Of a stretch of 64,000 nucleotides of DNA, positions 8,103-61,500 are shown one piece after another; position 1 is the first letter of the stretch; every line of letters begins with the position of its first letter. The translations under genes were made by a program, and so were the position numbers. Source of the DNA: Alphaproteobacteria bacterium (GTDB lineage: Bacteria > Pseudomonadota > Alphaproteobacteria > RF32 > CAG-239); assembly GCA_045602545.1 (NCBI GenBank), contig JAZSBR010000017.1:2675-66674 (forward strand). Reading direction: 5' to 3'. The notes beneath the pieces are model-generated. The model did no database searches. It saw only the letters and a program-made list of their open reading frames with translations, and had not been told where the DNA came from.

Positions 8103-9122
8103 TCACTTTCTAAACGTCAATATCACAAAGTTGTCGTTACCATCGTGAAGCCACTCGTTTGCCTCTGCCGGAGTCCAACGTTTTTTGGCAAATGGGTATT
8201 CATCCAAGCAAGCATTATCCCAGAAAACCTGTCCTTTGGCATAGCAAGAAGATTCGTTTGGTCTTGATCTGCTAGGCACATAACCTTTTTGCCCGAAATC
8301 AGAATCAAAGACATCGGTCAGGTTAATAGCATCATAAGGAGCTAATAAATAATCTTCTAGCGAGCTGTATTCCGTTGTTTCACAATTTTGTCCTTGCGCA
8401 TCGCAAACTTTGAGTTTCCCGTCAGATGTAAAATCATATGTTTCAATAATATCTTGATTGCCATAATTGTCAACTTTGCTTACTGGTCTGCCTGATTCAT
8501 CATAGATGATGCTATAATCATCCATCGGCATAGAACGTACTGAAGAAATCCTTCCATTTTCGTACTCCAATAATGTATCGGTATATGGTTCCCATATTGT
8601 AGCCCCAAAATTTATTATATTGCCTTCAGCATCAAAGCTCGCATTAACAAAACCTAAAGCATTTCCGTTTTCATCATAGCTTTGCATGAATTTTGAAGTT
8701 TCACCAAAATTAGGATAGTAGGCCGTTGCATATAAAGGATCCCCCTGCATATTTTCAGGACTATTAATAGCATTTCTATAAGTTCTTATATCTGTAGACC
8801 AATCATACTGTCCTGGATTGTCGTTTTTTATAGTTACTATATTACCATCATAAGTATAAGTTTCGGCACGACTACCAGACCTATAATATGACATAAGTCC
8901 ATTATCATAATATTGGTATTCATTCCCATAAGAATCTCTGGTCACATAAAAAGTTCCATCTTTAACATAACCTTCATTGCGACCGTCTGTACATTTATTA
9001 TCAGAATCGCAATTAAGAATAGGATCATTGTCGATAACTGTTTTACCGCTCACTATTCTAGCATAGGCATCTGTGCCATAAATTGCAATCATAGTTATTA
9101 AAATTAAGGTTGTTTTTTTCAT
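8103..9122 (-). CDS. secreted protein, YD-repeat-like passenger, family C-terminal tag
   Basis: Signal peptide MKKTTLILITMIAIYGTDAYA. Repeated YD..G motifs. Ends ..KRWTPAEANEWLHDGNDNFVILTFRK. Preceded by leader copy 1. Confidence 0.8.
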   Translation of the reverse strand: MKKTTLILITMIAIYGTDAYARIVSGKTVIDNDPILNCDSDNKCTDGRNEGYVKDGTFYVTRDSYGNEYQYYDNGLMSYYRSGSRAETYTYDGNIVTIKNDNPGQYDWSTDIRTYRNAINSPENMQGDPLYATAYYPNFGETSKFMQSYDENGNALGFVNASFDAEGNIINFGATIWEPYTDTLLEYENGRISSVRSMPMDDYSIIYDESGRPVSKVDNYGNQDIIETYDFTSDGKLKVCDAQGQNCETTEYSSLEDYLLAPYDAINLTDVFDSDFGQKGYVPSRSRPNESSCYAKGQVFWDNACLDEYPFAKKRWTPAEANEWLHDGNDNFVILTFRK

Positions 9123-9149: not shown

Positions 9150-9365
9150 AAAAACTTTAAGACCGCTATAATAGCGGTCGGAAGCTGAAAACTATTAAAA
9201 GACAAATAGTGCGTTTTATTAAAATCTCAAGGATTTCTATTCACACGCCTTCCGACCAATATAGTCAGAAGTATTTGTATAAAAAAATGTCTTTTACGAG
9301 GTTTTCAGGCCTCCGAGCCTTTTATGCTCATCTTTTATATTAGCTGAAAAAAATTATTTTGTAAA
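9150..9365 (-). promoter_or_regulatory. family promoter + structured leader RNA + terminator, copy 1
   Basis: -35 TTTACA (9360-9365), 17 nt, -10 TAATAT (9337-9342). RNA starts near 9329 with GAGCAUAAAAGGCUCGGAGG. Terminator gaccgctat/atagcggtc at 9161-9179. Confidence 0.75.
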
Positions 9366-17204: not shown

Positions 17205-19247
17205 TCACTTTTTGAATGTCAATATAACAAAGTTGTTATCATCATTCAATAAAGGCGCCGCCTCGGCGGGAGTATATTGAATGCGGTTGCAAAATCCACC
17301 CATATCCTTATAGCCGGCACCGCAACCATTGGCAGAACTTATGCAAACTCCGTCTTTGCCTAAATAGCCATCTCCGCAACCCTTGGATTCACTAACACAA
17401 AGATTATCTTTTAAGTAGAAGCCTACATCACAGCCTTCGCCGTCTTCTCTGGCAACACATTCATCTCCGACTTGTTTTTCCCCATAACCGCAACCAAGAT
17501 CTGCAGGGAAACAGGAAGGATAACCTTTGTTATTGGTTCCAATTAAATACCCATCATCACATTCGGAAACACATTTTCCTTGTTGTACATAAAAACCTTT
17601 TTGACATCTGTAACATTCACCATAATTATTCAATAAACAATTTTTTGGCACACACATTCCTTTTTCATAGACAATTTTTTTTGTTTCACCTTCTTCACAT
17701 TCCTCAACACACTTACCTTCCCTCATGTAGGTATTATTTTTACAACCAAAACAAACACCATATGATGCATTACAATTTTTTGGGCGACACATCGAGTTAC
17801 CTATGTCGTCATCATATCCTTCAGGACATGGTTGATCAGAAGGAATACATTCATAACCTGTATTCTTATACCCTTTTTCACATCTTTGACAAACCGTATC
17901 TTGTCCATATAACGTATTCATTCTATAGCAATGCTCTATTTCAATTGGTTGACAGGTACCATTATCATTAGGAGCATAACCATCTTTGCATTCTATGCAA
18001 CGATTACCATTATTTGCACAATGAGCACAATTATCATCATCACAAACAAAACAATTTCCTGAACCACTTCCACCATATCCCTCTTGGCAATTTTCGCATC
18101 TGGCATAATTACTATAGCAAGTCAGACATCCATCGATGGCACATTTGATACACTCTCCATTTTCATTTTTTCCATAACCGGTTTGACAAGATGAACAAAT
18201 ATTTACGTCTGATGTACAATTCGAACAGTTTTCAATAGCACAAGCCTGACAAGAACCATTAACTAATCTAAAACCTGTCTTACAGGTACGACAGGATGTG
18301 TAATTAGATCCACCGCAATCTGAACAATTAGAGTCGGCACAAGCTATGCATTCTTTATTCCCTTCAGAATTTTTTATTCCTAAACCTGTTTTACATTGTG
18401 TGCATGATTTATAATTTGCAGTGCAAAAATTACACCCATCAATAGCACATTTAACACACTCTCCATTTTCATTTTTTCCATATCCAGGGTACTGACATTG
18501 ATTACATATCCGATAATTTGTATTACAATCACTACAATTTTTATTAGAACATTTTTTACAATTATTATTTTCATCTAATCCATAGCCCTCAACACATTTT
18601 GCACATTTACCATTTATTCCACAACTTGTACAATTATCCTGACATTTATCTCTATCTAATTCCAATGAACATTCTCCGTTAATTAAAATATACCCACTCG
18701 TACAGCCTGTACATTTACCTGTTGTTGCATTATACCATGAGCAACCTTCAGGATTTTGTTTACAATTTCCATTTTCCACATAATACCCGCTATTACAACC
18801 CCCGCATTTGCCTTCATTCACATTGTACCATGAACAATTTTCCGGATTTTGTTTACAAACTCCATTTTCCATATAATATCCGCTGTCGCACCACGCACAA
18901 TTACCGCTAACACCGCAAGCACTGCAATTTTCCGGACAAGTATCAGAATCAGCCTCTTCCTCACATCTTCCATTAACTGTTATCATATCATCATAGCAAC
19001 CATCACATTGCTTATAATTATCTTCACAGTCTTCGCAATTTGAATCTTCACACCGCACACAAACACCATTTTCATTGTGCCCATATCCATTGTCGGCACA
19101 ATCGTCACAATATCCGGTTTCTTGGTCACACGAATCTTCACTATAACACATTGAATTTCCGCCGCATAAATATTCATTATACTCCCAAGCATAACTTTGT
19201 TTGAACCCTAAAATTATCATAACTAAACTAAAAACAATCTTTTTCAT
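17205..19247 (-). CDS. secreted cysteine-rich (CXXC / furin- or VSP-like repeat) protein with family C-terminal tag
   Basis: Signal peptide MKKIVFSLVMIILGFKQSYA. Dozens of C-x2-C modules with internal duplicates (GYGKNENGEC(V/I)KCAIDGC twice). Ends ..CNRIQYTPAEAAPLLNDDNNFVILTFKK. Preceded by leader copy 2. Confidence 0.85.
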   Translation of the reverse strand: MKKIVFSLVMIILGFKQSYAWEYNEYLCGGNSMCYSEDSCDQETGYCDDCADNGYGHNENGVCVRCEDSNCEDCEDNYKQCDGCYDDMITVNGRCEEEADSDTCPENCSACGVSGNCAWCDSGYYMENGVCKQNPENCSWYNVNEGKCGGCNSGYYVENGNCKQNPEGCSWYNATTGKCTGCTSGYILINGECSLELDRDKCQDNCTSCGINGKCAKCVEGYGLDENNNCKKCSNKNCSDCNTNYRICNQCQYPGYGKNENGECVKCAIDGCNFCTANYKSCTQCKTGLGIKNSEGNKECIACADSNCSDCGGSNYTSCRTCKTGFRLVNGSCQACAIENCSNCTSDVNICSSCQTGYGKNENGECIKCAIDGCLTCYSNYARCENCQEGYGGSGSGNCFVCDDDNCAHCANNGNRCIECKDGYAPNDNGTCQPIEIEHCYRMNTLYGQDTVCQRCEKGYKNTGYECIPSDQPCPEGYDDDIGNSMCRPKNCNASYGVCFGCKNNTYMREGKCVEECEEGETKKIVYEKGMCVPKNCLLNNYGECYRCQKGFYVQQGKCVSECDDGYLIGTNNKGYPSCFPADLGCGYGEKQVGDECVAREDGEGCDVGFYLKDNLCVSESKGCGDGYLGKDGVCISSANGCGAGYKDMGGFCNRIQYTPAEAAPLLNDDNNFVILTFKK

Positions 19248-19284
19248 CTTTTACTTCCTTTTCTAAAATTATTCCCATTTGCAT

Positions 19285-19515
19285 AAAAGAAAATCGCCAC
19301 ATAAAGGGGCGACTGGAAGCTCGAAACTATTACTTGGTCAGATAGTATGATTTATTCGTAAAGCCATGCTTTCTTATCTCATCACCTTCCAGCCATACAT
19401 GTATGACTGAAAACAAACTATCCTTTTATGAAAGGACAACCAAGTAAGAGGTTTCGATACCTCCGAGCCTTTTATGCTCACTCTTTATACTAGCGGAAAA
19501 AATAAAATTTGTAAA
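19285..19515 (-). promoter_or_regulatory. family promoter + structured leader RNA + terminator, copy 2
   Basis: -35 TTTACA (19510-19515), 17 nt, -10 TAGTAT (19487-19492). RNA 5' end near 19479. Terminator agtcgcc/ggcgatt plus U-run at 19285-19313. Confidence 0.75.
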
Positions 19516-26550: not shown

Positions 26551-27756
26551 ATGTATAACGTTCGCAAAATTACCGAGGACTTATTTTGGATAGGTGCCAG
26601 CGATCGCCGATTGGCTTTGTTTGAAAATGTTTATCCGATTCCGATGGGTGTTTCGTATAACTCCTATGTTTTGAAAGATGAACAAACTGTGTTGCTTGAT
26701 ACGGTTGACAGCGCCGTTGCCGAACAGTTTTTTGCCAATCTGAAACATATTTTGGGCGATAAGAAGCTGGATTATCTGGTGGTTAATCATATGGAGCCGG
26801 ATCATTGCTCGCAAATTGCGCGCGTTATGGATATGTATCCTAGTGCGAAAATTGTTTGCACGGCTAAAACCAAACAGATGATTGCCCAGTTTTTCGGCAT
26901 TTCTGCCGGCGATGAGCAATTTGTTTTGGTTAAAGACGGCGATGTTTTGAAAACCGGAAAACACGAGTTTGCCTTTGTTTCGGCGCCGATGGTGCATTGG
27001 CCGGAAGTTATGGTGACCTTTGATAAAACCGACGGAATTTTGTTTTCTGCCGATGCTTTCGGAACTTTCGGTGCGATAAACGGCAATATTTTCGCTGATG
27101 AAGTTGATTTTGAGCGCGATTATTTGAACGAGGCGCGTCGCTATTATGCCAACATTGTCGGAAAATACGGCCCGCAGGTGCTTTCTCTTTTGAAAAAAGC
27201 TTCCGCGCTTGAAATAAAGATGATTTGCCCGCTTCACGGGTTTATTTGGCGCAAAAATATCGCTTATTTGGTGGAAAAATATGCCAAATGGGCTGAGTAT
27301 GTTCCGGAAGAAAAGGGCGTTGTTATTGCTTATGGTTCAATTTACGGCAACACGGAAAATGCTTGTGAAATTTTGGCGGCAAAGTTGGCTGAAAAAGGCG
27401 TGAAAAATATCAAAATGTATGATGTCTCGGTTACGCACGGCTCATATATCATCGGCGAGGCTTTTCGCGCTTCGCATCTCGTTTTTGCCGCACCGACCTA
27501 TAATGCCGGAATTTTCATCAATATGGAAAATTTGCTTCGTGATATAACGGCGCACAATTTGCAAAACCGCACGATTGCGCTGATGGATAACGGCTCGTGG
27601 GCAGCCACTTGCAACAAGCAGATGAAAGAGGAATTGCAAAAGCTGAAAAATATTGAGTTTTTGGAGCCGGAAATTTCCTTGAAATCAGCATTGAGCGAAG
27701 GACAATTGTTACAAATTGATGAGTTGGCAACAAAAATCGCCGATTCTTTGCGCTAA
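26551..27756 (+). CDS. fprA: flavodiiron protein (metallo-beta-lactamase + flavodoxin domains)
   Basis: HMEPDH di-iron motif and C-terminal flavodoxin-like (VVIAYGSIYGNTE). Confidence 0.85.
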   Translation: MYNVRKITEDLFWIGASDRRLALFENVYPIPMGVSYNSYVLKDEQTVLLDTVDSAVAEQFFANLKHILGDKKLDYLVVNHMEPDHCSQIARVMDMYPSAKIVCTAKTKQMIAQFFGISAGDEQFVLVKDGDVLKTGKHEFAFVSAPMVHWPEVMVTFDKTDGILFSADAFGTFGAINGNIFADEVDFERDYLNEARRYYANIVGKYGPQVLSLLKKASALEIKMICPLHGFIWRKNIAYLVEKYAKWAEYVPEEKGVVIAYGSIYGNTENACEILAAKLAEKGVKNIKMYDVSVTHGSYIIGEAFRASHLVFAAPTYNAGIFINMENLLRDITAHNLQNRTIALMDNGSWAATCNKQMKEELQKLKNIEFLEPEISLKSALSEGQLLQIDELATKIADSLR

Positions 27757-27818: not shown

Positions 27819-28014
27819 TTTACAAAACGGAAATTTTCTGCTAGCATTTTGATTGGGCATAAAAGGCTCGGAGGTCGATAAGCCTCAGGTACAGTATTAT
27901 ACTTCTGACTAATATGGTCGGAAGGTGGCAGAATAAAAACACTAGTGTTGTAATATGTCACACTATTTACTGTATCATAGTTTATCGCTTCCGACCGCTC
28001 GTTGAGCGGTTTTA
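27819..28014 (+). promoter_or_regulatory. family promoter + structured leader RNA + terminator, copy 3 (short subtype)
   Basis: -35 TTTACA (27819-27824), 17 nt, -10 TAGCAT (27842-27847). RNA from about 27855 (GGGCAUAAAAGGCUCGGAGG). Terminator ccgctc/gagcgg plus U-run at 27995-28014. Confidence 0.75.
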
Positions 28015-28048
28015 AATTTTAAAAATTAAAATTTAACGGAGGACTAAA

Positions 28049-28738
28049 ATGATAAAAAATGAAAAAGGACGCTCTATGGTGGAAATGCTGGGAGTATTGG
28101 CAATAATTGGTGTTTTAAGCGTTGGTGGAATCGCCGGTTATTCAAAGGCGATGATGCAATTTAAAATCAATAAAACCATCAACCAAATTATGTACACGGC
28201 TGCGGAAATCAGAACATTATTTGCCGGACAGCCGTATTGTGATGAAAAGGGGAACAATTATTGGGACAATCAACATATATCAAGTATAACAAGTAATATT
28301 TTTAAATGCGATGATGATCGTTGGCATAATTGCTATAATGAATGGGGTGAAACGGTTTATATATATTCTGAGTGTGTAAGATCAAGATATGAACAATTTG
28401 GCTATTATAACAAATCAGAATTATTCAGAATTTATACAAATATTCCATATGAGGCTTGTGTAAAATTTTATTCAACAGATTGGGGAACACGTGCAACAAC
28501 CGGAGTTTTTGCTATTAATATGGATGATTCATGTTCAGTATATGAATTTGGTTGCGCATATCAGAGTGATTATAAAGAAATGCATGAAACAGAAGCTTCA
28601 ACTTGGGCAAAAGATGTAGCGCAAGAAATGGGTATTCCAGCGGAATATACTATTCCGATGTCTGTTGCTGATGCAGTACAATTTTGTAAACAATATGAAG
28701 GTGATGACTTTGTGGGTTTTGCCATCTTTTTTGAATAA
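28049..28738 (+). CDS. prepilin-type (class III signal) N-terminal domain protein
   Basis: MIKNEKG|RSMVEMLGVLAIIGVLSVGGIAGY: Gly, Glu at +5, and a hydrophobic helix of about 20 aa. SD GGAGG lies 7 nt before the ATG. Preceded by leader copy 3. Confidence 0.75.
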   Translation: MIKNEKGRSMVEMLGVLAIIGVLSVGGIAGYSKAMMQFKINKTINQIMYTAAEIRTLFAGQPYCDEKGNNYWDNQHISSITSNIFKCDDDRWHNCYNEWGETVYIYSECVRSRYEQFGYYNKSELFRIYTNIPYEACVKFYSTDWGTRATTGVFAINMDDSCSVYEFGCAYQSDYKEMHETEASTWAKDVAQEMGIPAEYTIPMSVADAVQFCKQYEGDDFVGFAIFFE

Positions 28739-28793: not shown

Positions 28794-28910
28794 ACAAATC
28801 CTTATTCCGGCGCAGGAGAATATATAAGGCGCCGGTGCCGCCGAGTTTGGCACTAGGGTTCTTATAAATCAAAATAGCCGCGCGCAGGTGTGGCAAATTC
28901 AGCCATTGCG
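28794..28910 (-). pseudogene. duplicated 3' fragment of smr
   Basis: About 97% identical to 29641-29757 (3 mismatches seen). Ends abruptly at the junction with the fprA fragment. Confidence 0.85.
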
Positions 28911-29084
28911 CTGATGGATAACGGCTCGTGGGCAGCCACTTGCAACAAGCAGATGAAAGAGGAATTGTAAAAGCTGAAAAATATTGAATTTCTAGAGCCG
29001 GAAATTTCCTTAAAATCAGCGTTGAACGAAGGACAAATATCTCAATTGGAAGAATTGGCTGAAAAAATAGCAAGAAATATATAA
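28905..29084 (+). pseudogene. duplicated 3' fragment of fprA with in-frame stop
   Basis: The first ~100 nt are almost identical to 27574 onward. CAA>TAA at 28968-28970. The 3' tail is diverged but still protein-like (..LKSALNEGQISQLEELAEKIARNI*). Confidence 0.85.
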
Positions 29085-29638: not shown

Positions 29639-30184
29639 TTACAAATCCTTATTCCGGCGCAGGAGAATATATAAGGCGCCGGTGCCGCCGAGTTTGGCAC
29701 TCGGGTTTTTATAAATCAAAATTGCCGCGCGCAGGTGTGGCAAATTCAGCCATTGCGGAACACTTTTTTTCAAAATTCCTTTAACGGCAAAAATATCGTC
29801 ATCATCGTTATGCGGCAAGCCTTTTCCGGTAACGATTATAATACAGCGAAGCCCGCGGTTATAACTTTTTGCCACAAAATTTTCCACCGCTTCAAAAGCC
29901 TGATTTTCCGTCATGCCGTGCAAATCCAAAATTGCCTCGGGGCGAAATTCCTCGCGTTTAAATTTCGTCAAAGTAGAATTGTCTATTCCGCCGAACTCGT
30001 GGTCATCCAAAAACTTGGAATTAAGCGAAAAATCCTGTTTGCTTAAATATTCTTTTTTCGGCTCGGTCGATTCGCTTCTTTTATGCTTAACGGCAACGCT
30101 TTCCGGCAAAACTTCCGGACGCTTTATCGGCGTAACATTTTCCAATGTTTCAAGCCAGAATTTTGTGTCTTCGTCGTTTGTCAT
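29639..30184 (-). CDS. Smr-domain protein
   Basis: ILDLHGMTENQA..IIIVTGKG Smr motif. Confidence 0.8.
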   Translation of the reverse strand: MTNDEDTKFWLETLENVTPIKRPEVLPESVAVKHKRSESTEPKKEYLSKQDFSLNSKFLDDHEFGGIDNSTLTKFKREEFRPEAILDLHGMTENQAFEAVENFVAKSYNRGLRCIIIVTGKGLPHNDDDDIFAVKGILKKSVPQWLNLPHLRAAILIYKNPSAKLGGTGALYILLRRNKDL

Positions 30185-32597: not shown

Positions 32598-33068
32598 ATG
32601 CGTCTTGCTTTATATCAACCTGATATTGCCCAAAACACAGGCACTTTGCTTCGGCTTGGTGCCTGTTTGGATTTGGAAATTGATATTATTGAACCGTGCG
32701 GGTTTATGTTTAATGAAAAAAATATGCGTCGCGCCGGCATGGATTATTTGGATTTTGCAAAATATCGCCGTCATGATTCGTGGGCTGATTTTTTGGCATA
32801 TCGCGATGCTCATCGGCAAGAATACGGGCGTTTGGTCTTGATGACGACCAAGGGCAAGACTTCATTTATAGATTTTGAGTTTTTGAAAAACGATATAATT
32901 TTAATGGGCAGAGAAAGTGCCGGAGTTCCGCAAAGCGTGCATGATATGGTTGATGCCAGACTATTGATTCCGATGAATAAAAACGCGCGCTCGGTGAATA
33001 TGGCAATTTCGGCGGCGATGGCGGTGACCGAAGGCTTGCGTCAAACAGACGGCTTCCCGAAGCTGTGA
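32598..33068 (+). CDS. trmL: tRNA (cytidine/uridine-2'-O)-methyltransferase, SpoU/TrmL type
   Basis: MRLALYQPDIAQNTGTLLRLGACL..LMGRESAGVP..IPM....RSVNMAISAAM. Start moved to ATG 32598; the track's upstream extension overlaps secB. Confidence 0.85.
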   Translation: MRLALYQPDIAQNTGTLLRLGACLDLEIDIIEPCGFMFNEKNMRRAGMDYLDFAKYRRHDSWADFLAYRDAHRQEYGRLVLMTTKGKTSFIDFEFLKNDIILMGRESAGVPQSVHDMVDARLLIPMNKNARSVNMAISAAMAVTEGLRQTDGFPKL

Positions 33069-33096
33069 TTACCTTATTTAATTTTCCAATTTTTAC

Positions 33097-33328
33097 TTTA
33101 CAAAGCAAAAATTTTTTGCTAACATCTTTTATAGAGCATAAAAGGCTCGGAGGTCAAGAAGCCTCTTGTAGATATAGTCCTTGCATAAAAGGATAGTTTT
33201 GTTTTCAGTCATATTCGTATGGCTGGAAGGTAGTGAAATAAGAGACCTTCTGGTTTGCGAATAAACTACACTATCTTATCTACAATAGTTTCTTGCTTCC
33301 AGTCGCCTTTTTTGGCGATTTTTCTTTT
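33097..33328 (+). promoter_or_regulatory. family promoter + structured leader RNA + terminator, copy 4
   Basis: -35 TTTACA (33097-33102), 17 nt, -10 TAACAT (33120-33125). RNA from about 33134. Terminator agtcgcc/ggcgatt plus U-run at 33301-33328. Confidence 0.75.
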
Positions 33329-33369
33329 ATGCTTAATTGGCATAATTTTTTGAAAAAAGGAAAATTAAG

Positions 33370-34152
33370 ATGAATAAAATTGTTTTATTAACAAGTGCGG
33401 CAGTAATGTGTTTTACCACAATCAGTAAATCAATAGCTGAAACCTGGGACTGCGGAGACCAAGGAAATAATGTCCAATGTACACTTGATGAGGATGGAAC
33501 TTTTACTGTTTCCGGCAGTGGTAAAATGGCGGATTATGAGTATGATACTTACGATGGGGTAGGAAATGGACCATCCTCAGGCGCGCCATGGGGAGGTAGT
33601 AGAGCGGCAATGAATAGAATCAAAAGTATAATAGTAAAAGATGGTGTAACAAAAATTGGCAAAGGATCTTTTACCGGAGCAGCAGCGCTTGTGAGTGTTT
33701 CCATGTCCGGAGTTGAAGTTGTGGGGGAACAAGCATTTCGTGATGCTTATTTATTGAAGGAAGCATATATGCCTAAGGTGGAAATAATTGAAACTGGTGG
33801 TTTTGATTGGAATAAGAGTCTTGAAAATGTGTATGCTCCAAGTGTCAGAATAATTGATTCTTTAGCATTTGAAAATGCAGTTTCGCTTAAATATATAGAA
33901 ATGGGTAATAATGTCTCTATAGGTTCTTCTGCATTTCATAATACTAAAATTCAAAACTGTGGAAATGGCGGAACCTGTATTAACTGTGGTGATAAATATG
34001 CGTTGTTAGGGAAAGGGTGTGTAAATAAATGCCCTGACAATTTTAAAATTAATGACGGTTATTGTGACCGCATTCGTTATACTCCTGCCGAAGCGGCTCA
34101 AGTTTTGCGCGATGATAATACAAACGAGGTGACAATTACGTTTAAAAAATAA
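33370..34152 (+). CDS. secreted BspA-type leucine-rich-repeat protein with family C-terminal tag
   Basis: Signal peptide. ETWDCGD..GTFTVSGSG N-terminus. LRR units (..IGKGSFTG.., ..VGEQAFRD.., ..IDSLAFEN.., ..IGSSAFHN..). Cys-rich module. Ends CDRIRYTPAEAAQVLRDDNTNEVTITFKK. Confidence 0.85.
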   Translation: MNKIVLLTSAAVMCFTTISKSIAETWDCGDQGNNVQCTLDEDGTFTVSGSGKMADYEYDTYDGVGNGPSSGAPWGGSRAAMNRIKSIIVKDGVTKIGKGSFTGAAALVSVSMSGVEVVGEQAFRDAYLLKEAYMPKVEIIETGGFDWNKSLENVYAPSVRIIDSLAFENAVSLKYIEMGNNVSIGSSAFHNTKIQNCGNGGTCINCGDKYALLGKGCVNKCPDNFKINDGYCDRIRYTPAEAAQVLRDDNTNEVTITFKK

Positions 34153-43933: not shown

Positions 43934-45085
43934 TTATTTTTTGAAAGTAATCGTTACTGAATTATTATTATCATCGGTCAGAACTTCAGCCGCTTCGGCA
44001 GGGGTGTAACGTAAGCGGTCGCATTCACCGTCATTGAGCTTAAAATTTTCGTTTTTGCATTTTGTGCAACCCGAGGCGCCCATTTTTGTGCAACCGTCGG
44101 GATAGGCAAGTAATTTTCCGGATAAAAGATCGTTTAAATGGTCTTTACAATCGCTTATCCAAGACGGATAGCGCTCTTCCAATTTTTTCCCAGCCTTATC
44201 ACAATCAACATTACTGAACAATTCTTCGCATTTTTCGGCTCCGCAATAAACCTTGGCATCTGCCCCTAAAGCTAAGTTACGAAGAAACCAGCCTTCAATT
44301 GAAGTTATGCTCGGTGGAAGTATGAGTGTTCCGTTAAACCCTGTCGAAAGGTTAGCCCAAGGACCATCTCCTAATGTGGTTTGTCCGTCATTAACAATAA
44401 CCGTTCCGGTCACAATAGCTTGGTCAAATGAATTAGAATCTGTCTTATTAACCTTTAGAACCCCATCCTTACCGTGTATATTTGCTCCGAAAATATAAAA
44501 AGCGTGCTGTCCTATTGAGCTAAACTCTCCATCAATTTCAACATCGCTAACAGTTGGGAAATTTCCGCTTTCGTAATATCGAGGTGAAAACATTCCCTTT
44601 GAAACAACGGCATCAGGCTTGGTCGCGGTTACGGTCAACTTGCCATTATTATAGTTATAAGTGCAACCCTCGCCGCAATTATTGGGAACTCCGGGATTCC
44701 ATTCATGGCAGGTATCAATCCAATTTTTTTCGGTCGCCATACATTCTGCCCGTGATTCGGTGATAGTGATGAGGGTTAAAACAATGGCAAGCACCGGAAT
44801 CGTCATTATGAGGAGCATTCTTTGAATGCGACGTGATAATTTCATAAAACAAGTGACGCTTGCAAATAAGTATTCTTTATTTGCATGAGTACCTTGCTCA
44901 GGGAGATAACCACGTCGGACTGAAGTCCTCCTCGTTATGACGCCCTCTATTTCAAGCGCTTCGCCACATTCACTGCCGATTGTCGCCGTCCCGCCGACGA
45001 GGTTTTTATACAAAAACCTCTTGGAATATTTATTGCATTCTTCGCCTGATTTAAGCATTTGAACACTATTAAAATTCTTCCTCAT
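43934..45085 (-). CDS. secreted/anchored LRR-like protein with family C-terminal tag and an 80-aa pre-signal extension
   Basis: The ATG at 45085 sits at the same position after the leader and SD (AAGGAAGTAAAAGATG) as in copy 2. An alternative start at 44845 (MKLSRRIQRMLLIMTIPVLAIV..) gives a classical signal peptide. Ends CDRLRYTPAEAAEVLTDDNNNSVTITFKK. Confidence 0.75.
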   Translation of the reverse strand: MRKNFNSVQMLKSGEECNKYSKRFLYKNLVGGTATIGSECGEALEIEGVITRRTSVRRGYLPEQGTHANKEYLFASVTCFMKLSRRIQRMLLIMTIPVLAIVLTLITITESRAECMATEKNWIDTCHEWNPGVPNNCGEGCTYNYNNGKLTVTATKPDAVVSKGMFSPRYYESGNFPTVSDVEIDGEFSSIGQHAFYIFGANIHGKDGVLKVNKTDSNSFDQAIVTGTVIVNDGQTTLGDGPWANLSTGFNGTLILPPSITSIEGWFLRNLALGADAKVYCGAEKCEELFSNVDCDKAGKKLEERYPSWISDCKDHLNDLLSGKLLAYPDGCTKMGASGCTKCKNENFKLNDGECDRLRYTPAEAAEVLTDDNNNSVTITFKK

Positions 45086-45123
45086 CTTTTACTTCCTTTT
45101 CTAAAAAAAATACCACTCAGCAT

Positions 45124-45354
45124 AAAAGAAAATCGCCTCATAAAGGGCGACTGGAAGTTGCGAACTATTGTACATCAGATAGTGTGATTTATTCGCAAAG
45201 CTAAAGCTTTCTTATTTCATCACCTTCCAGCCATATAAATATGACTGAAAATAAAACTATCCCTATTTATAAGGACAAATGTACAAGAGGTACGCACACC
45301 TCCGAGCCTTTTATGCTCTAGAGGTATGCTAACAGAAAAAATTTAAAAAGTCAA
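45124..45354 (-). promoter_or_regulatory. family promoter + structured leader RNA + terminator, copy 5
   Basis: -35 TTGACT (45349-45354), 17 nt, -10 TAGCAT (45326-45331). RNA 5' end near 45318. Terminator agtcgcc/ggcgatt plus U-run at 45124-45150. Confidence 0.75.
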
Positions 45355-49525: not shown

Positions 49526-50272
49526 TTATTTCTTGAATGTAATAGTTACCTCATTCGTATTATCATCACGCAATACCTTAGCCGCATCCGCCGGAGTCCA
49601 ATGTACATGGTTACAGAAATTTTCAAACTGACGATATCCGGCACCGCAACCTAAAGATGCATCTATACATTTTCCCTCTTTTCCTAAATATCCAACTCCG
49701 CAATCTTTCACGCACCCCAATCCGCTTTTAACATAATCATTACAAATACCACATGACGTATGTTTATTAGAACAAGAAGGAATTTTAGTACCATCAAAAA
49801 CATGACTTCCGACCATGGCATTATCCTTAAATTGTGCAAATTCAAGATTTGTTGAGCCAGCAAATACTGAGGCTGCAATTACTGCGTTTGGTATAGATAT
49901 GCTCTTTAATTTTCCGGCAGATTGGAAAGCCCAATTACCGAGAGATTCAACGCTGTCTGGGATATAAATACTTTCTAAGTTTTGTAAATTTTTGAATGCT
50001 CCTGCTCCGACTCTGGTAACTCCTTCACTAATTATAATTTTTTTTATTTGATCTGTTTTATCTTCCCAAGGACGCTCAACCTCTAAACCTGTATCATTGT
50101 TCGTGTAATAATCTTTTATATTTCCTGTTCCGGATACAATCAAGGTGCCATCGTTTTGAAGTGTGCAAATAACACTACTCTTTTCATCGCCACAGTCCCA
50201 CATTTCCGCTTTTAAATTACCGATAAATGCTATATTTATCGCTACGCTTGTTAATAAAAACAGTTTTTTCAT
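49526..50272 (-). CDS. secreted BspA-type LRR protein with family C-terminal tag
   Basis: Signal peptide. EMWDCGD..GTLIVSGTG. LRR units (VGAGAFKN, LGNWAFQS..). Ends CNHVHWTPADAAKVLRDDNTNEVTITFKK. Preceded by leader copy 6. Confidence 0.85.
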   Translation of the reverse strand: MKKLFLLTSVAINIAFIGNLKAEMWDCGDEKSSVICTLQNDGTLIVSGTGNIKDYYTNNDTGLEVERPWEDKTDQIKKIIISEGVTRVGAGAFKNLQNLESIYIPDSVESLGNWAFQSAGKLKSISIPNAVIAASVFAGSTNLEFAQFKDNAMVGSHVFDGTKIPSCSNKHTSCGICNDYVKSGLGCVKDCGVGYLGKEGKCIDASLGCGAGYRQFENFCNHVHWTPADAAKVLRDDNTNEVTITFKK

Positions 50273-50310
50273 ATTTATTTCCTTTCCTTAAAAATTATTT
50301 TCATTTAGCA

Positions 50311-50540
50311 TAAAAGAAAAATCGCCCCAAAAAGGCGACTGGAAGTTAGTAACTATTATGTATTAGATAGTGTGATTTATTCGTAAAGGTTACCCCTTCT
50401 TATTTCATCACCTTCCAGTCATACGCATATGACTGAAAACGAAACTATCCCATCAAAAGGATTAATACATACGAGGTTACTACACCTCCGAGCCTTTTAT
50501 GCTCAATTTTTATGCTAGCAGAAAAAAATTGCTTTGTAAA
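50311..50540 (-). promoter_or_regulatory. family promoter + structured leader RNA + terminator, copy 6
   Basis: -35 TTTACA (50535-50540), 17 nt, -10 TAGCAT (50512-50517). RNA 5' end near 50504. Terminator agtcgcc/ggcgat plus U-run at 50311-50338. Confidence 0.75.
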
Positions 50541-50732: not shown

Positions 50733-51656
50733 TTACTTTCTGAAAGTAATTGTCACTTCATTGCTGTTATCATCAAACAAAACTTCGGCGGCTTCAGCAG
50801 GTGTCCAGCGAATGCGATTGCACCAATTTTCAATCCTTTTATAATTGTCACCGCAACCGGTCGCGGCGGCAATACATTCACCGTCTTTTTCCAAATATCC
50901 GCTTTTGCAAGTCTGGCAATGTATATCATCGCGCATTTCTTCGCAATTTGCCGTAACGGTGCGGCATTTTCCGCTCTTTTTATCACCATATTGACCAATC
51001 GGACATGTTTCAGCACAAGTTCCGGCTAAGGTCAGATATTTGCCTTTTTCGCATGTCTGATCTTGATTGCCGATACATAAACCATTTGTCAAACTTCCGG
51101 CAGTACAATTGTTGCAAGCAAAACCTTCTCCGGATATACTGCATCTATTGCATCCGGCAATTAAATTACTGCATGTATAACATGTGCCATCCTTTTTTAT
51201 CTGGTTTTGTCCTCGGCAATCAATACATTGGCTTTTATCTGCGTTCCAGCCGGCGTAATCAGCGCATACGAGTGTAGTGCGCCCCTCATCATCAACATTA
51301 CATCCTGCCGTATGCTGAGATGACGGACAAGTATAGCATGTCCCGTTTTTAATTTTTTGATTTATGCCTCGGCAATCAATACATTTGCTTTTATCCGCGT
51401 TCCAGCCGGCGTAACCGGCGCATACGAGTGTAGTGTGCCCCTCATCATCAACATTACATCCTGCTACATGGTTTAGTGTTGGTGTTGAACAAGTATAGCA
51501 TATACCATTTTTTAATCTTTGATTTATACTGCGACAATCGATACACACTCCGTTTTCATTCAATCCATAAGGAGAAAAGCAAGCAGCAAAAGAATTATTC
51601 AAAGAAAACATAAATATTGCTATGGTCGATATTACTAGCAAAAATATTTTTTTCAT
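50733..51656 (-). CDS. secreted cysteine-rich repeat protein with family C-terminal tag
   Basis: Start at MKKIFLLVISTIAIFMF.. (51656), after AAGGAAAAAG. Three tandem units of about 52 aa (CIDCRxxNQxxKxGxCYTC...GCN...). Ends CNRIRWTPAEAAEVLFDDNSNEVTITFRK. Preceded by leader copy 7. Confidence 0.85.
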   Translation of the reverse strand: MKKIFLLVISTIAIFMFSLNNSFAACFSPYGLNENGVCIDCRSINQRLKNGICYTCSTPTLNHVAGCNVDDEGHTTLVCAGYAGWNADKSKCIDCRGINQKIKNGTCYTCPSSQHTAGCNVDDEGRTTLVCADYAGWNADKSQCIDCRGQNQIKKDGTCYTCSNLIAGCNRCSISGEGFACNNCTAGSLTNGLCIGNQDQTCEKGKYLTLAGTCAETCPIGQYGDKKSGKCRTVTANCEEMRDDIHCQTCKSGYLEKDGECIAAATGCGDNYKRIENWCNRIRWTPAEAAEVLFDDNSNEVTITFRK

Positions 51657-51699
51657 TTTCTTTTTCCTTTCTTTTTTATAAATTAAACCACGCATAAAA

Positions 51700-51911
51700 A
51701 CCAAAAACCTCCGAAACGGAGGCCGGAAGAGACAAACTATTTCGTATGATATAGTGTAACATATTCGAACTTGACAATTCTTATTCTGTTACCTTCCAGC
51801 CGAAAAGGATGGAAATATTGCTATTTTTAGCTTTCATACGAATGAGGTTTGTCTACCTCCGAGCCTTTTATGCTCAATTTTTATGCTAGCAGAAAAAAAT
51901 AGCTTTGTAAA
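51700..51911 (-). promoter_or_regulatory. family promoter + structured leader RNA + terminator, copy 7 (internally most divergent)
   Basis: -35 TTTACA (51906-51911), 17 nt, -10 TAGCAT (51883-51888). RNA 5' end near 51875. Terminator cctccg/cggagg plus U-run at 51701-51724. Confidence 0.75.
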
Positions 51912-55565: not shown

Positions 55566-58500
55566 CTAAAAATGATAATTTAAGCTCAAGCCGGTATCCG
55601 TGCGATATTCGCGGTCAATATTTGTGCGAAGTATCGCCGAAATATCAAGATTTTCTTTGATGTTATAACCGGCACCGAAGCGAAGAACAGTGCGTTTGTC
55701 GCCGTGTTTTTCATCTTTGAGCTTATAATTACCATTCATCTCATTCATGCCGACTTTCAAATCATAAGGGTCGGCAAACTCTTTATAAAAAGACATGCCT
55801 CCGCTGATTTTAAGCACAGAATCTTTGTTCGGCGTAAATTCTTTTTCCAAATTAAAGCCGACGCCGGATTCAACCGAATAATGATTTTGCGAGTCAATAT
55901 TTAGGCTGTATTGTTTTGTATCTTCACGGCCCTTAACATTGAACCCAATCATATTAAATTCGGCATTCGGCACGATTTTTACACCATTAAACTTGAACGG
56001 ATAGCGAGCCTCGTTCATCAAAGCAAAGGTTTTGCGCTCAACCGTTCCGTCATAGTTTTCACCGTTCAAACCTTCACGCTCGTATGAACCGCGGGCATAG
56101 CCGAGTTTAGGCGAGGTGATAAGCTCAAAACCATGTGTTTTGTGTGAAACAGGCATGCTGAGCATGATGTTTTTATCCAGTTTGTTGGAATTCTTGCTCT
56201 TGTTGTCTGCTCTGACATCTGCAACAGCCAAGCCGACGGCAACCGACGTTTTTCCGTCACTGTATCCGTTTAAGGCATAGTGACTGCTTGAGCCGAATTT
56301 TTGCCCCTTTACGATTTCAACACCGTCAGCCAAAGAAAATGTGCCTTTCTTTTGCTCGGTCAAGTTGTCATTCATGGCAAAATTCATCTCACGCAAAGTG
56401 TTCAAATCTTCAAAGGTTAAATTGCTCATCAGATTATTGCCGAACAAATCATTAAGGTTTTGGTTGAACTGTGCGGAATTTTCGGCTGATTTAAGCGAAT
56501 TAAACAGATTTTCGTTATTTTTCTCGGCATAGTTATTTTCCAAGAAATCAGCCAACGATGAGTTTTCAACCACACTCGCAAAGTCTTTTTTGCTCATGAT
56601 GACATCGGTATTGCCGTTGTCGTTAAGCGCTTTGTCAGCATTGAACAAATATGAACCCGAAGTGATGTTTAAGCCCATATCCTCGCCGACGAACGAATTT
56701 TTGTTGGTGTATTCGTTTTCAAATCCGCCGAGAGTTATATCGGAATCGGCAACAACATTACCGCTGAAAGACAAAGCCTTAAAACTTCCGCCGTTTGCAA
56801 TATTTACGGAACTTGTGTCATCGGTTGAAGCACTGAAATCAAGCGCCGAATTTGTGGTTATGAGACCGCTGTTGATGATTTTTCCGGAGTTGGAAGCCAT
56901 CATCATTGTTGTTTTTGGCGCTGATAAAGCTAATGATGACGGTTTTACTTCAGCTGCTTTTCCGGTTGCAGTAGCGCCATTTTTACCAACTAACCCATTT
57001 GACAAGGACTCTTCTGTCGGCATATATATGTGTGTTGCATTATTATTGGTGTTAGTTGCTGTTGAACCACTACCGCTTGCAAACATACCATAAGACGATG
57101 CATCATTTATGATAATAGTTCCGTTATTAGTTATTCTACCACCGTTTACGGCGTACATACCATAGGAAGCCGAAGCATTCACAATTATGGTTGCACCGCT
57201 TGCATTGGTTGCCGTTGCGCCGGCACCATCTGCCGTCATGCCTGATGAACCTGCTGCACCTGCTAAAACGTTAATTGTTCCTTTATTTATAGCACTAGAT
57301 CCATTTCGGGCATACATACCGGATGAGCCGGTTGAGCTTACATTTATGACTCCGGCGCCGTTTCCGTCACCGTTTGTAACAGTGGCTCCCTCATCGGCAA
57401 CCATACCGTTTGATGCAGAAAAGGCAACGTTGATTGTTCCTTTATTGGTTGCGGTTGCCTGCGTTGTTGTATCACCATTATGGGCATATATACCAATTAC
57501 ATTGGTTGCCGAACTGCTTGAAGACGAACTCTCAGGAGCAATATCTATTGTACCTTCATTTACAACATTTCCACCATTATATGAGCGCATACCAAAAGTG
57601 TTGCTTCCGGTCAACTTTATGCTTGCACTGTTTGCATTTGTTGCAGACGAACCGCTGCCTTGGGCATAAATACCGAATGAATCGGAGCCGGAGACAATAA
57701 TTGTTCCGGAAGTGTTTGTCGCTGTGCCTCCGTCTTTGGCGCCAAGGCCGCGAGCTTTTTCTCCGCTTACACGAATGGTACCCAAATTACGAACTGATGA
57801 ACTTTGGTTATTGTTTGATATCATGCCGTAAGCACCATTTGCTGAGGCATTGATTTCACCTGACGCAAGATTTTCGGCAATGGTGGAAATGCCATTACTG
57901 CTGTTAGATATTATACCATAAGAGTTTATGTCATAAATATTGATAATGGCACTGTTTTCGGCTTTTGCTCCGTCTTCTATGACAATGCCTGCTGATCTGT
58001 ATTTATCGGAACCTTCCGAGCCGACATTTATAACACCATTTGCACCATTGACTGCCTTTGCTCCCAGACCTGTTGCATAAATGGCTTGCGAGCCGTCTTG
58101 TTCATCGTTATTTGCGCCAGATGCGTTCATTGTACCGTTGTTGGTAACGTTAATTTTATTGCCGGATGATGTGCTGTTTGCATATATGCCGGCACTCTCT
58201 GTTTGAGTAGAATTTATAACCCCTCCTTCGGCATTTGTGATGTTTGTAGTTCCGGCTTGAAGTTGATCTGTATGAATACCGCTTGTTTTATAGCCGGAAG
58301 CATTGATTGTTCCAGAGTTTGTTACAGTTGCACCACTGTTGGTATAAATACCGATAGCGCCGTGATTATCTGTTGTACCTGCTCCGCTTGCACTGATAGT
58401 GCCGGTATTATTAACTATTGCGCCATTTTCGGCGAAAATACCGACAGAGCCGTTTTGCCCCGCTGTTGCACCGGTGGAAGCCAGAATTGTGCCTTTGTTT

Positions 58501-61500
58501 TCAGCTTTTGCCGAACCGACAGCATGCATACCGCTGGCTGAAGAATTTTGAACATCGATTACACCGGTTGAACTTCCGCTACCGGAACCGTTTGTAATGG
58601 TAGCTCCGTTTGAGGCAAACATACCGTTTGCATTTTCACCGCTGACGCTGATATTTTTGGCATTGGTGGCGTTGGCAGACGAACCGGTAATTGAAATACC
58701 GATGGCATCTTTATGTTGAATACCTAAATTTGCATTGTTTACGGTTGTTGAGCCGGAAAGCCCTTTGAAAAGGACTTGTCCGTCTTTGCCGGTTGCAAAA
58801 TCGGAGTTAATCGTAAGCGTTCCGCCGTTAACGGTGTGGGCAAAAGTAGATGTTCCTGTTGTGGTTGCGCCTCCGCTGAAGTCCATTATTACGTTTCCGC
58901 CGATTTCGTAATAGATAAAGTCTTCAGGAATATCATCGCCGACATCCAAAAGCTCGGTTAAAGTCATATCCTTATCAATGCGCATACCGATTGTGTCTTT
59001 TTTGCCCTCCGTAACCTTAACTGTTCCGTATTCGGCGATTACAGATGTTGAATCTTTGCCGATATAAAAGGCAACAGCCTCATCATCGCTTAACAAAATG
59101 GTGTTGTAGTTATAAATTTTTCCGGAACCGTTTGAAATTATGGCATAACTGTTCTTTTTCTTTACTTCAATCACACCATAGTTCTTGATATCCGCTGTTG
59201 AGTCTTTGGCAGTGAACATGCCGACACTTTCTTCATTATTGACAACGATTTTACCGTTTTCAGTGTTGATGATTGCAACGCTATCTGCTGCTGAGGCACT
59301 TATCATACCGGCAGATTTTTTGGTATTGATATTTATGGTGCCGTTGTTCACGGTTGAAGAGCCGTTAACGGTTGAAGATGTGGCATAGATACCGACAGAT
59401 TGTACGGTTGTACCGTCACCGCGATCATTAAGGTTAATCGTGTTGTTGTTTCTTACTTCTCCCAAAGCACTGTTATTGGCAATTGCAGCCGTGTAAGATG
59501 AGCCTGTAAGAGAAACAATACCGTTATTGATTACCTTGTAGGTGGTTGAAGCAGACGTTCCGCCGGAAGCTTGATTTAGGCTATTGCTTCCATCTGTATT
59601 TACAACAGCATCTTGTATATTGAAAGCTAAAGTATCAGGAAATTCGGATGTTGATGCCGAGCTTGAACCTGAACCTGAACCTGAGCCAGAACCGGAACCG
59701 GAACTCGGATTAGTATTAGGAGTTGTTTTGTAATCTACTGTTCCGTTATTGATTATGTTACTGTATTTTCCGGCAAACGGGTGTGAACCTGTGGCACTTT
59801 TTTCAATTGTTATAGTACCTGTATTTGTAATTGTTGTTGCGCCGGAATAATCATTTTTTATACCGGTGGAATTATTTGAATAAATATGAATATTGCCGAC
59901 ATTGGTCATATCTGTTCTTATTTCACCGATACCATACATGCCGACATTATTGGTATAATCAGTATCGCCTTCGGCACCTAATATAATAGTGTTATTATTC
60001 TTTAATGTTCCGCCTTGATAAGCTGCCATACCATACGCATTGCTGATAGCAAGAGTAATTTTTCCGTTATTGGTAACAACCGGAGAGATATTGCCCAAGC
60101 CTGATACCGTGCCGTTACCTTTAACCGCAACCATGCCGTATGTAACACGGCTGTCTGTTGCACCTGAAGTTAAATTGATTTCTCCGGTTGCCGAATTGGT
60201 AATAGTACCGCCGTGTACTGATTGCATGCCGGCGGCAACGGATTGAGAACCGGTATCCGTTGTTGACATATTTATGTTAATTTTACCATTGTTGACGGCC
60301 ACGGTGTTGGCGTCGGATTTTATGCCGACAATACCACCGGTTCCGTTTTGTATGTAATCATATTCGGCAGCATATTTCCCAAAATAAGAAAGATTTATGG
60401 TGTTCTCATTGGTTATTTCGGCTTTTTCACCGCGCTTGATGTTTTTACTGCCGTTTAAAAAACCATTATCAAGATAAGAACCCATGCCGATAAGGCTGAC
60501 CTCAACACTATCAACCGGAGTAATGCTTGAATGCTGACCGGCAACCAAGTCTATAGTACCTGAATTTATAGCTTTTGAAACAATGGAAGATGAATCGGTG
60601 TTGGCATTTATTATCATCAACTCCATACCGACCATGGAACCCTTTGTTGCTGAAGCAGTACCGCTTTCTTCCGAGGTAAGCGAGGCAGTTCCGTCAATTA
60701 AACCATTATTGACAATACTTGAGCCGGCATCGCCATACATACCGATTATGGCGTTAGTTTTTTCATAACCTTTAAAGGTTAAGTGTATGCCGTTTGCCTC
60801 TGTTCCGTTATTATAAGCGCTTGAATGATCGCCTGCAAGCATACCGATTGCGGCATTATTACCCGAAACGTTTACGGCACCGCTGTTGGCGGCTGAACTG
60901 CCGTCATATGCCGACATAGCCACAACTCCGCTTGAAGCATTTAAATCCGTGTTTTTGTTGTTGGTATATGTTCCGCCATTGGTGGCTTTTAAGATGACAT
61001 TCAAGTCTTTAGAGTTGTTTGTAACATCTTCATTGAAATTAACCGTTTTTACGGATTCTTTATCATTGCTCATGGTTAAAACGGAAGAATTTGTTTTTGT
61101 TTCTCCGCTTCCGGCAGTGCGCATTACCGAACCATTCTGTGCCAAGAACTTGCCGGCGCTGTCAATTTTTTCTTTTGACGGACCGGAAGAGCCTTTCCCT
61201 CCGCCACCACCTCCGCCCAAGGCAAGAGCAATACCACCGCCGACGAGTGCGGCGCCTGCTGCCCACCAAACCCAAGGGGCAACTTTATATTCTTCTTTGC
61301 CCATCATGCCATATGCGGCGCGAGATGTACCCGATATCGGAGCAGTGCCGGCAGAGTTAACAAAATCCTCATATCCGTAAATCGTTTGTGTGCAAGGGTG
61401 ACGCGGGTTCGCACCGGCAGCGCGAAAGGCGTTATATGTATAAGTATCTCTTCTTCTGGCGGCAATGCAAAGACCGGTATCGCCGTTTTGATTCATAACA

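Follow-up and report, generated by a model that had tools for sequence, protein, structure and literature searches.

What does a structured RNA leader that stands before seven genes in a single bacterial region do, and can the competing pairings near its 3' end act as a genetic switch? The region (the window: the whole 64,000-nucleotide (nt) stretch that was analysed, from contig JAZSBR010000017.1 of an Alphaproteobacteria bacterium) had received an initial annotation, which took a 123-nt segment of leader copy 4 (33206–33328) for a switch-like platform in which a box pairs either with an upstream strand or with a 3' element that shares bases with an intrinsic terminator. We lean towards reading the complete ~190-nt structured 5' leader as a default-off transcription attenuator with four layers: two anti-antiterminators, the latent antiterminator that they mask, and a terminator. 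An invariant 20-mer (GAGCATAAAAGGCTCGGAGG) matched the 64-kb window seven times with ≤1 mismatch, against 0 matches expected, and an nhmmer profile returned exactly seven leaders. Each of the seven shares the orientation of a gene that begins 40–50 nt downstream; the other leaders, found in the loci of relatives (see below), are likewise gene-oriented and 40–50 nt before a start codon, without exception.

Dominant fold of the leader

Energy folding gave the same minimum-free-energy architecture in all seven copies (State T), described here with the coordinates of copy 4 (33134–33332, + strand). Two long-range helices close a domain. In H1 (33149–33162 with 33288–33300), the invariant GGAGG (33149–33153), a bulged U and eight variable nucleotides pair with eight variable nucleotides (GUUUCUUG) followed by the invariant CUUCC; H2 is a wholly variable 9-bp helix (33166–33174 with 33277–33285) whose 5' strand, UUGUAGAUA, has a different sequence in each copy, 8 of the 9 pairs showing compensatory changes. 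The closed domain holds a hairpin found only in the long subtype (UCCUUG/AAGGA, 33177–33194; weakly supported, 64% of cells paired), a hairpin between a decoy (or mimic) strand, UUUUCAGUCAUA, and the box arm, UAUGGCUGGAAG (33202–33213 with 33218–33229; 97% paired, three pairs with double changes), and the hairpin P2 (33230–33269), whose stem and distal hairpin covary and whose internal loop (AAAUAAGA // CGAAUAAA) is conserved. The intrinsic terminator, AGUCGCC-UUUUUU-GGCGAUU followed by the U-tract UUUCUUUUAU (33301–33330; pattern scan and folding), stands directly 3' of H1 and is intact in this fold, in which CUUCC is bound by the 5' GGAGG and the box by the decoy. An equivalent terminator hairpin with covarying arms was present in all copies of this sequence family (type A). 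The 5' strand of H1 and the decoy strand would be the two anti-antiterminators.

Covariation across the leaders supported this architecture. RNAalifold found compensatory double changes in 22 of 47 pairs among the seven paralogues, and with eight sequences the whole fold had 24 pairs with double changes, a value reached by 0 of 500 shuffles. For H1 and H2 together (ten sequences), 93% of cells were paired and 14 of 22 pairs were compensatory; none of 500 shuffles reached this and slid controls gave 34–46%. The copy-4 leader folds at –70.2 kcal/mol, with a fold z-score of –7.25. The 123-nt segment is therefore not the whole platform, since the long-range helices H1 and H2 dominate the fold. A simple three-way junction of P1 (the box:3'-element helix described below), P2 and P3 as the main fold was dropped after energy folds and covariation had revealed H1 and H2.

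The G-U pairs in the helices and the fixed orientation of the leaders relative to genes place the structure in the sense RNA rather than in DNA. A multi-copy sequence with internal inverted repeats could also be a miniature mobile element or an inverted-repeat site of recombination or inversion, and we find such a DNA-level explanation hardly credible: on the opposite strand or in DNA the retained G-U pairs would count as mismatches, the arms vary from copy to copy and compensate within each, the orientation to genes does not vary, and neither terminal repeats nor target duplications, for which no specific search was made, appeared in the repeat search or the copy alignment.

A promoter-like site precedes the leader (TTTACA-17 nt-TAACAT with TG upstream, 33097–33125, + strand; pattern scan and seven-copy alignment) and is kept in all copies as CTTTACAAAG...TGCTAGCAT. 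From this sigma-70-like sequence, transcription is predicted to start near 33132–33134, at an invariant 5' hairpin (GAGC-AUAAAAG-GCUC, 33134–33148; alignment and folding). Part of this segment, GCAUAAAAG (33138–33146), is exactly complementary to CUUUUAUGC (33324–33332), which overlaps the end of the terminator U-tract, in the long subtype and in copy 7. The pairing closes the whole leader in full-length folds, and might protect the terminated RNA or have a role confined to read-through transcripts.

In a bovine-gut metatranscriptome, a 213-nt contig (depth 7.8) covers 33152–33333 of a sister copy, with compensatory changes in the P2 distal hairpin, and extends 32 nt past the terminator, to the ribosome-binding site. 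The leader, including the 5' strand of H1, is transcribed; the contig gives no measure of termination. Contigs of this organism are sparse in the run, and the coding regions downstream of the seven leaders were uncovered except for a trace on the copy-2 gene (mean depth ~2, one bin). Such a pattern, a leader contig with nearly uncovered coding regions downstream (the copy-2 trace only), would also be produced by an independent small RNA gene, whose ~190-nt transcript would act in trans or sequester a protein and whose position would be incidental or due to a shared mobile cassette. The leader has its own promoter and terminator, and GCAUAAAAG at its 5' end can pair with CUUUU of the terminated 3' end to give a closed, stable RNA. 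We consider this explanation very unlikely: all seven window copies, like all leaders from the loci of relatives, have the same orientation and lie 40–50 nt from the start codon, the sequences of H1 and H2 are copy-specific, so that there is no common face for pairing in trans, and the RNA contig continues beyond the terminator into the ribosome-binding site. Since the gap between terminator and ATG is only ~40–50 nt, it leaves no room for a second promoter.

An alternative pairing that overlaps the terminator

Are the pairings around the terminator truly alternative? The box (GGCUGGAAG, 33221–33229), the upstream CAGUCAUA (33206–33213), the 3' element (CUUCCAGUC, 33296–33304) and the terminator stem AGUCGCC/GGCGAUU (33301–33320, followed by TTTCTTTTAT) are all where the initial annotation had placed them, and the sequences that it quoted for the short subtype and copy 7 are correct. 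The upstream pairing exists, CAGUCAUA with UAUGGCUG (33218–33225), as part of a helix of 10–12 bp rather than the 8 bp first given (UUUUCAGUCAUA/UAUGGCUGGAAG, with 3–4 G-U pairs). Its decoy strand repeats the 3' element in a form weakened by wobble pairs (UUUUCAGUC vs CUUCCAGUC), and each of the three leader types (below) has such a weaker, G-U decoy.

The proposed pairing of box and 3' element (P1, with the box as the 5' strand of the latent antiterminator) was borne out by its compensatory changes: 90 of 90 cells were paired across ten type-A leaders, 0 of 500 shuffles reached this value, and slid controls gave 23–52%. The box pattern GGYYGGAAG together with its complement occurred 13 times, against 0.87 expected. 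P1 was found in five haplotypes (GGUC/GACC, GGCU/AGUC, GACU/AGUC, GGCU/GGCC and GGCC/GGUC), and its variable positions are the four nucleotides that reach into the terminator, while the corresponding 5' GGCU is invariant; H1 therefore does not account for the covariation of P1. The 3' element is thus common to H1 (CUUCC), P1 (all 9 nt) and the terminator (AGUC), and a picture of three elements is incomplete, since CUUCC has a third partner in the invariant 5' GGAGG (33149–33153). Because P1 occupies four of the seven stem positions, it would shorten the terminator, as had been claimed: the stem is worth –8.9 to –12.4 kcal/mol when whole and –2.6 to –5.9 kcal/mol without its first four nucleotides. 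The P1 duplex itself was calculated at –15.7 to –17.8 kcal/mol, versus –7.2 to –12.7 kcal/mol for the decoy hairpin.

Every strand of the leader has a partner in a second global fold (State A), composed of a local 5' hairpin and a P1/P2/P3 three-way junction. The 5' strand of H1 can fold on itself with the invariant CCUC (33162–33165) to give the local hairpin, and P2 is present in both folds. The invariant ACUAU (33270–33274) and AUAGU (33285–33289) flank the 3' strand of H2 (33277–33285) and could form the alternative hairpin P3 (33270–33289), with that strand as its loop; both being invariant, P3 is without covariation.

Relatives were collected by following protein homologues of the downstream gene to metagenome contigs in ENA and taking the leaders upstream. 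Besides four further type-A leaders (L013:228–428, – strand; L020; L021; L022), two other types were found, type B (L009:9726–9985, L013:4858–5110, L015:3984–4235, L016:660–910 and L019:2560–2810) and type C (L017:3551–3765, identical to L018; L011:2845–3070; L023:2605–2830). Types B and C precede homologous genes and are unrelated to type A in sequence; they follow the same plan, with one or more 5' hairpins, H1 and H2 that covary, a hairpin in which a wobble-rich decoy holds the box, P2, a terminator abutting H1, and an inverted repeat that flanks the 3' strand of H2 in sequence and in fold, as ACUAU and AUAGU do in type A. An unbiased scan for partners of the H1/terminator junction (query: the final 6 nt of H1 joined to the initial 4 nt of the terminator) returned the box as the best upstream partner in 17 of 17 leaders of the three types (–13 to –19 kcal/mol), ahead of the 5' strand of H1, the actual ground-state partner; shuffles reached this in 0–5% of trials. 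The competition is thus conserved despite differing sequences, as the initial annotation had held. The box of each type contains GGA, and the type C box (GCGGAUGU) resembles the CsrA consensus, so that a CsrA-like, GGA-binding protein might be imagined; types B and C, however, have no GGA in their 5' strands. The second fold is probably used, because it is conserved and covaries in three unrelated sequence families.

Some observations on the relatives stand apart. The type-A leaders L020 and L021 are identical except for two bases in the 5' strand of H1 (L020:2730–2745 vs L021:686–701); H1 is perfectly paired in L021 and has two mismatches in L020, which there resembles copy 5, possibly through recombination between paralogous leaders or a chimeric assembly. 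Two DNA metagenome contigs, X1 and X2, join 33155/33156 to 33284 and 33165 to 33342, skipping 127–176 nt of the interior, and may represent naturally shortened leaders or misassembly of the repeated copies. Neighbouring genes of the relatives match MipZ/ParA (L013 13642–14643, L019 4653–5420) and a short DnaA-like (Hda-type) protein (L013 6783–7517), which may point to an alphaproteobacterial clade.

According to the mechanism that we favour, H1 and H2 would close the domain in State T, with the box held in the decoy hairpin and the terminator fully formed, and transcription would stop ~45 nt before the start codon. The antiterminator would then be masked twice, H1 covering its 3' strand and the decoy its 5' strand, so that termination would be the default. 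In State A, the box would pair with CUUCCAGUC (P1) and ACUAU with AUAGU (P3), the 5' strand would fold on itself (GGAGGU with (A or G)CCUC), and P1 would capture four basal nucleotides of the terminator, leading to read-through. An opening signal would either block the 5' strands and the decoy from engaging or stabilise the P1/P2/P3 three-way junction. Our guess at this signal is an RNA-binding protein or a small ligand that reads the conserved loops together with the invariant stretch at the 5' end; candidate recognition surfaces are the 5' 20-mer, the P2 internal loop and the junction bases. We infer that termination does occur here, that State A forms in vivo and that a signal of this nature acts on it.

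Several results weigh against this mechanism. Forcing P1 in full type-A leaders was 9.2–20.6 kcal/mol uphill, and at the decision point, before the 3' arm of the terminator emerges, still 9.4–17.6 kcal/mol; the corresponding costs were 12–24 kcal/mol in type B and 1–19 kcal/mol in type C. By these calculations the gap is beyond any ordinary ligand at equilibrium. State A would also be without an obvious kinetic route, because, by the time the 3' element is transcribed, the decoy hairpin and H2 can already have formed. GGAGG:CUUCC is invariant and, like P3, offers no covariation. Since the RNA contig runs 32 nt beyond the terminator, there is some read-through, or DNA carry-over in the RNA library. 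In type B, P1 and the terminator overlap by only 0–3 nt, and competition there is therefore mainly with H1. Finally, the sample is small (10 + 5 + 3 leaders of types A, B and C), with many paralogues. Given the energetic cost of State A, a trans-acting factor present during transcription would be needed.

Could the switch instead be as local as first proposed? In a purely local model built on the initial annotation, a ligand, protein or RNA would tip three elements near equilibrium, and no other part of the leader would matter. The 3' portion alone is indeed nearly balanced by calculation: when the 5' strands of H1 and H2 were left out, forcing P1 cost 0–6.1 kcal/mol, so that both folds lay within 0–6 kcal/mol, and both local pairings covary. 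However, the 5' strands are transcribed (promoter at 33097–33125; RNA contig from 33152), H1 and H2 are the best-supported helices of all, and with them present a comparison of the alternative folds, the check that had been suggested, found the antiterminator never competitive for naked RNA at equilibrium (9–20 kcal/mol uphill). Because State A lies 9–20 kcal/mol above the ground state, a simple equilibrium switch is unlikely, and the energies argue in particular against a ligand-tipped one among the three local elements, to which we give little credence. The logic of transcription attenuation was probably right; the simple equilibrium of three elements is not supported.

The main rival to the attenuator is a fixed structure, always in State T, in which P1 complementarity would be a by-product of the same short helix being present twice (GGAGG:CUUCC in H1 and GGAAG:UUUUC in the box hairpin). 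The two helix copies might be twin sites for one protein or for an RNase III-like processing enzyme, and the terminator might be leaky or set a low level of expression. In its favour, State T has a strong energetic advantage in all leaders, the 5' stretch GGCUCGGAGG is similar to GGCUGGAAGG of the box, and types B and C again have two G-rich and two C-rich segments. We nevertheless judge a fixed structure unlikely. The complementarity runs four nucleotides beyond CUUCC into the terminator, where it covaries through the five haplotypes opposite an invariant 5' GGCU; the decoy is always the weaker, G-U version in the three types, which suits strand displacement better than twin sites; and the inverted repeat around the 3' strand of H2, found in all three types, would be purposeless in State T.

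A broader reading extends the attenuator to a new class of multi-state regulatory RNA, with at least three sequence-unrelated versions of one architecture, that would control a regulon of secreted or surface proteins and pili in uncultured bacteria of animal guts, the antiterminator being locked by a decoy and a copy-specific clamp until a co-transcriptional signal (a dedicated RNA-binding protein or a second messenger) arrives. We put this forward tentatively, as doubtful in its full extent.

Genes downstream of the leaders

The copy-4 leader (33134–33335 by nhmmer, + strand) is followed by a ribosome-binding site, AAAAAGGAAAA (33354–33364), that lies outside the folded structure, and by the gene that it would control (33354–34152 with the ribosome-binding site, + strand). 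The product of this open reading frame (ORF; 33370–34152) is a signal-peptide-bearing BspA-type leucine-rich-repeat (LRR) protein with a conserved C-terminal RYTPAEAA...VTITFKK domain. The remaining leaders are copy 1 (9150–9329, – strand, short subtype; before the gene at 8103–9122), copy 2 (19280–19479, –; before a cysteine (Cys)-rich repeat protein gene, 17205–19247), copy 3 (27855–28020, +, short subtype; before a type IV pilin-like gene, 28049–28738), copy 5 (45118–45318, –; before 43934–45085), copy 6 (50305–50504, –; before an LRR gene, 49526–50272) and copy 7 (51690–51875, –; before a Cys-rich gene, 50733–51656/51704).

Six of the seven downstream genes encode secreted proteins that are otherwise diverse (Cys-rich repeats, LRR) and share one C-terminal motif of ~30 amino acids (aa), R(I/L)R(Y/W)TPAEAAxVLxDDNxNxVTITFKK-stop (sites at 8103–8200, 17205–17300, 34060–34149 within 33370–34152, 43934–44030, 49526–49620 and 50733–50830). 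These six are the only motif-bearing ORFs in the window, and every one has a leader; the remaining leader, copy 3, stands before the type IV pilin-like gene. The motif had no Pfam or NCBIfam match, and from its sequence it is a possible new C-terminal sorting or secretion signal. The window is otherwise ordinary chromosome (aspS, glyS, gyrA, leuS, pepF).

Homologues of the motif proteins occur in ENA and JGI gut metagenomes, and the source bacterium is found in bovine, pig and sheep gut metagenomes; the organisms that carry the leaders are known solely from gut metagenomes. An exact type-A 18-mer had eight matches in 185,579 species genomes, all seed-only by nhmmer and hence chance, and none in viral contigs; a 28-nt pattern had none in JGI metagenomes, and a protein-guided metagenome scan with the C-terminal domain gave only two loci.

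Further observations concern the genes themselves. Copy 5 has ~270 nt between the leader terminator and the signal peptide (44800–45090, – strand). As protein (…ITRRTSVRRGYLPEQGTHANKE…), this stretch is conserved in the JGI homologues P0049, P0065 and P0076, and as RNA it has a fold z-score of –4.97; it may encode a genuine N-terminal domain or be another structured RNA element. Direct repeats of 89% identity (27574–27740 / 28905–29071) and 97% identity (28794–28910 / 29641–29757) flank and follow the pilin-like gene, on the strand opposite to several small ORFs. A 2041-aa ORF (55566–61691, –), which contains families of 35-nt repeats and presumably encodes a giant surface protein, is not preceded by a type-A leader.

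Comparison with known regulatory RNAs

Does the leader belong to a described class? With the covariance models of Rfam 15 at their gathering scores, the only match in the window was a tRNA-Leu; at the permissive threshold of E ≤ 10 nothing relevant appeared in 32900–33500, and the loci with type B and C leaders gave only a tRNA. A literature search returned nothing on this RNA, on similar leaders or on the C-terminal motif. The RNA families appear undescribed; the regulatory principle is familiar. The leader has the parts of an attenuator, a G+C-rich hairpin and U-tract between promoter and start codon on the sense strand and a pairing that sequesters the 5' arm of the terminator, and that pairing is energetically competitive (0–6 kcal/mol) only without the 5' strands. 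On a metabolite- or ion-sensing riboswitch the observations are divided: helices covary and some unpaired nucleotides are invariant (CCUC, AAUAAGA, CGAAUAAA, CACUAU and AUAGUU), but types B and C differ in sequence, and the downstream genes give no metabolic clue.

Other modes of control were considered and rejected. A trp-type leader peptide is excluded, as no ORF is common to all copies in the type-A alignment. A tiny ORF (AUG GCU GGA AGG UAG, MAGR-stop) at 33219–33236 lies over the box, not the decoy, and has no Shine-Dalgarno sequence; eight of the ten type-A leaders align a start codon there, the ORF is absent from copies 1 and 7, its stop is not conserved, and it is probably a by-product of the UAUG:CAUA stem. 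An RNA thermometer (fourU/ROSE) does not fit, the UUUUC segment pairing with the box GGAAG ~130 nt upstream of the real ribosome-binding site. Ribosome binding at the 5' GGAGGU is unlikely, types B and C having no Shine-Dalgarno sequence there.

If the attenuator reading is true, one RNA device would coordinate a large, fast-evolving family of secreted proteins (Cys-rich and LRR) together with pilins. Among attenuators it would be unusual in the double lock on its antiterminator, in a decoy that is a weakened copy of the 3' strand and in gene-copy-specific clamp helices; it would offer a natural example of strand-displacement logic, with the invariant 5' segment as a handle on the regulator. 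Even without switching, it is an uncatalogued, strongly covarying RNA family fit for RNA databases.

Partial likenesses connect the leader with several known systems. T-box leaders (tRNA), BglG/LicT RAT sites and ANTAR targets would, by inference, share default termination and a weaker antiterminator that needs a bound factor; none of their sequence or structure features was recognised in this leader, its energy deficit is much larger and two masking helices would have to be opened. A cspA-type 5' untranslated region likewise sets mostly local hairpins (here the local 5' hairpin and P3, State A) against a more stable long-range fold (H1/H2, State T), but here the output would be termination rather than ribosome access, and P1 is itself long-range. 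In trp/his-type attenuators the decoy, box, 3' element and 3' strand of the terminator would correspond to segments 1, 2, 3 and 4, with 2:3 excluding 3:4; unlike those, this leader has no conserved leader peptide over segment 1 and has the additional H1/H2 clamp.

S-box (SAM-I) and L-box riboswitches of Gram-positive bacteria are terminator/antiterminator/anti-antiterminator leaders. In these and in the Bacillus subtilis rplJL leader (PMC4538822), as here, a long-range helix closes a multi-helix domain with an intrinsic terminator next to it, and the closing helix shares its 3' strand with the antiterminator and serves as the anti-antiterminator. The present leader differs in that the 5' strand of its antiterminator lies inside the domain under a decoy hairpin, that the closed state is favoured by 9–20 kcal/mol, which would give termination rather than read-through by default, and that it has copy-specific clamp helices and neither an Rfam family match nor a recognised aptamer. 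By analogy, the S-box, L-box and B. subtilis rplJL leaders are the closest to it in logic, and it also resembles the four-segment scheme of the trp type.

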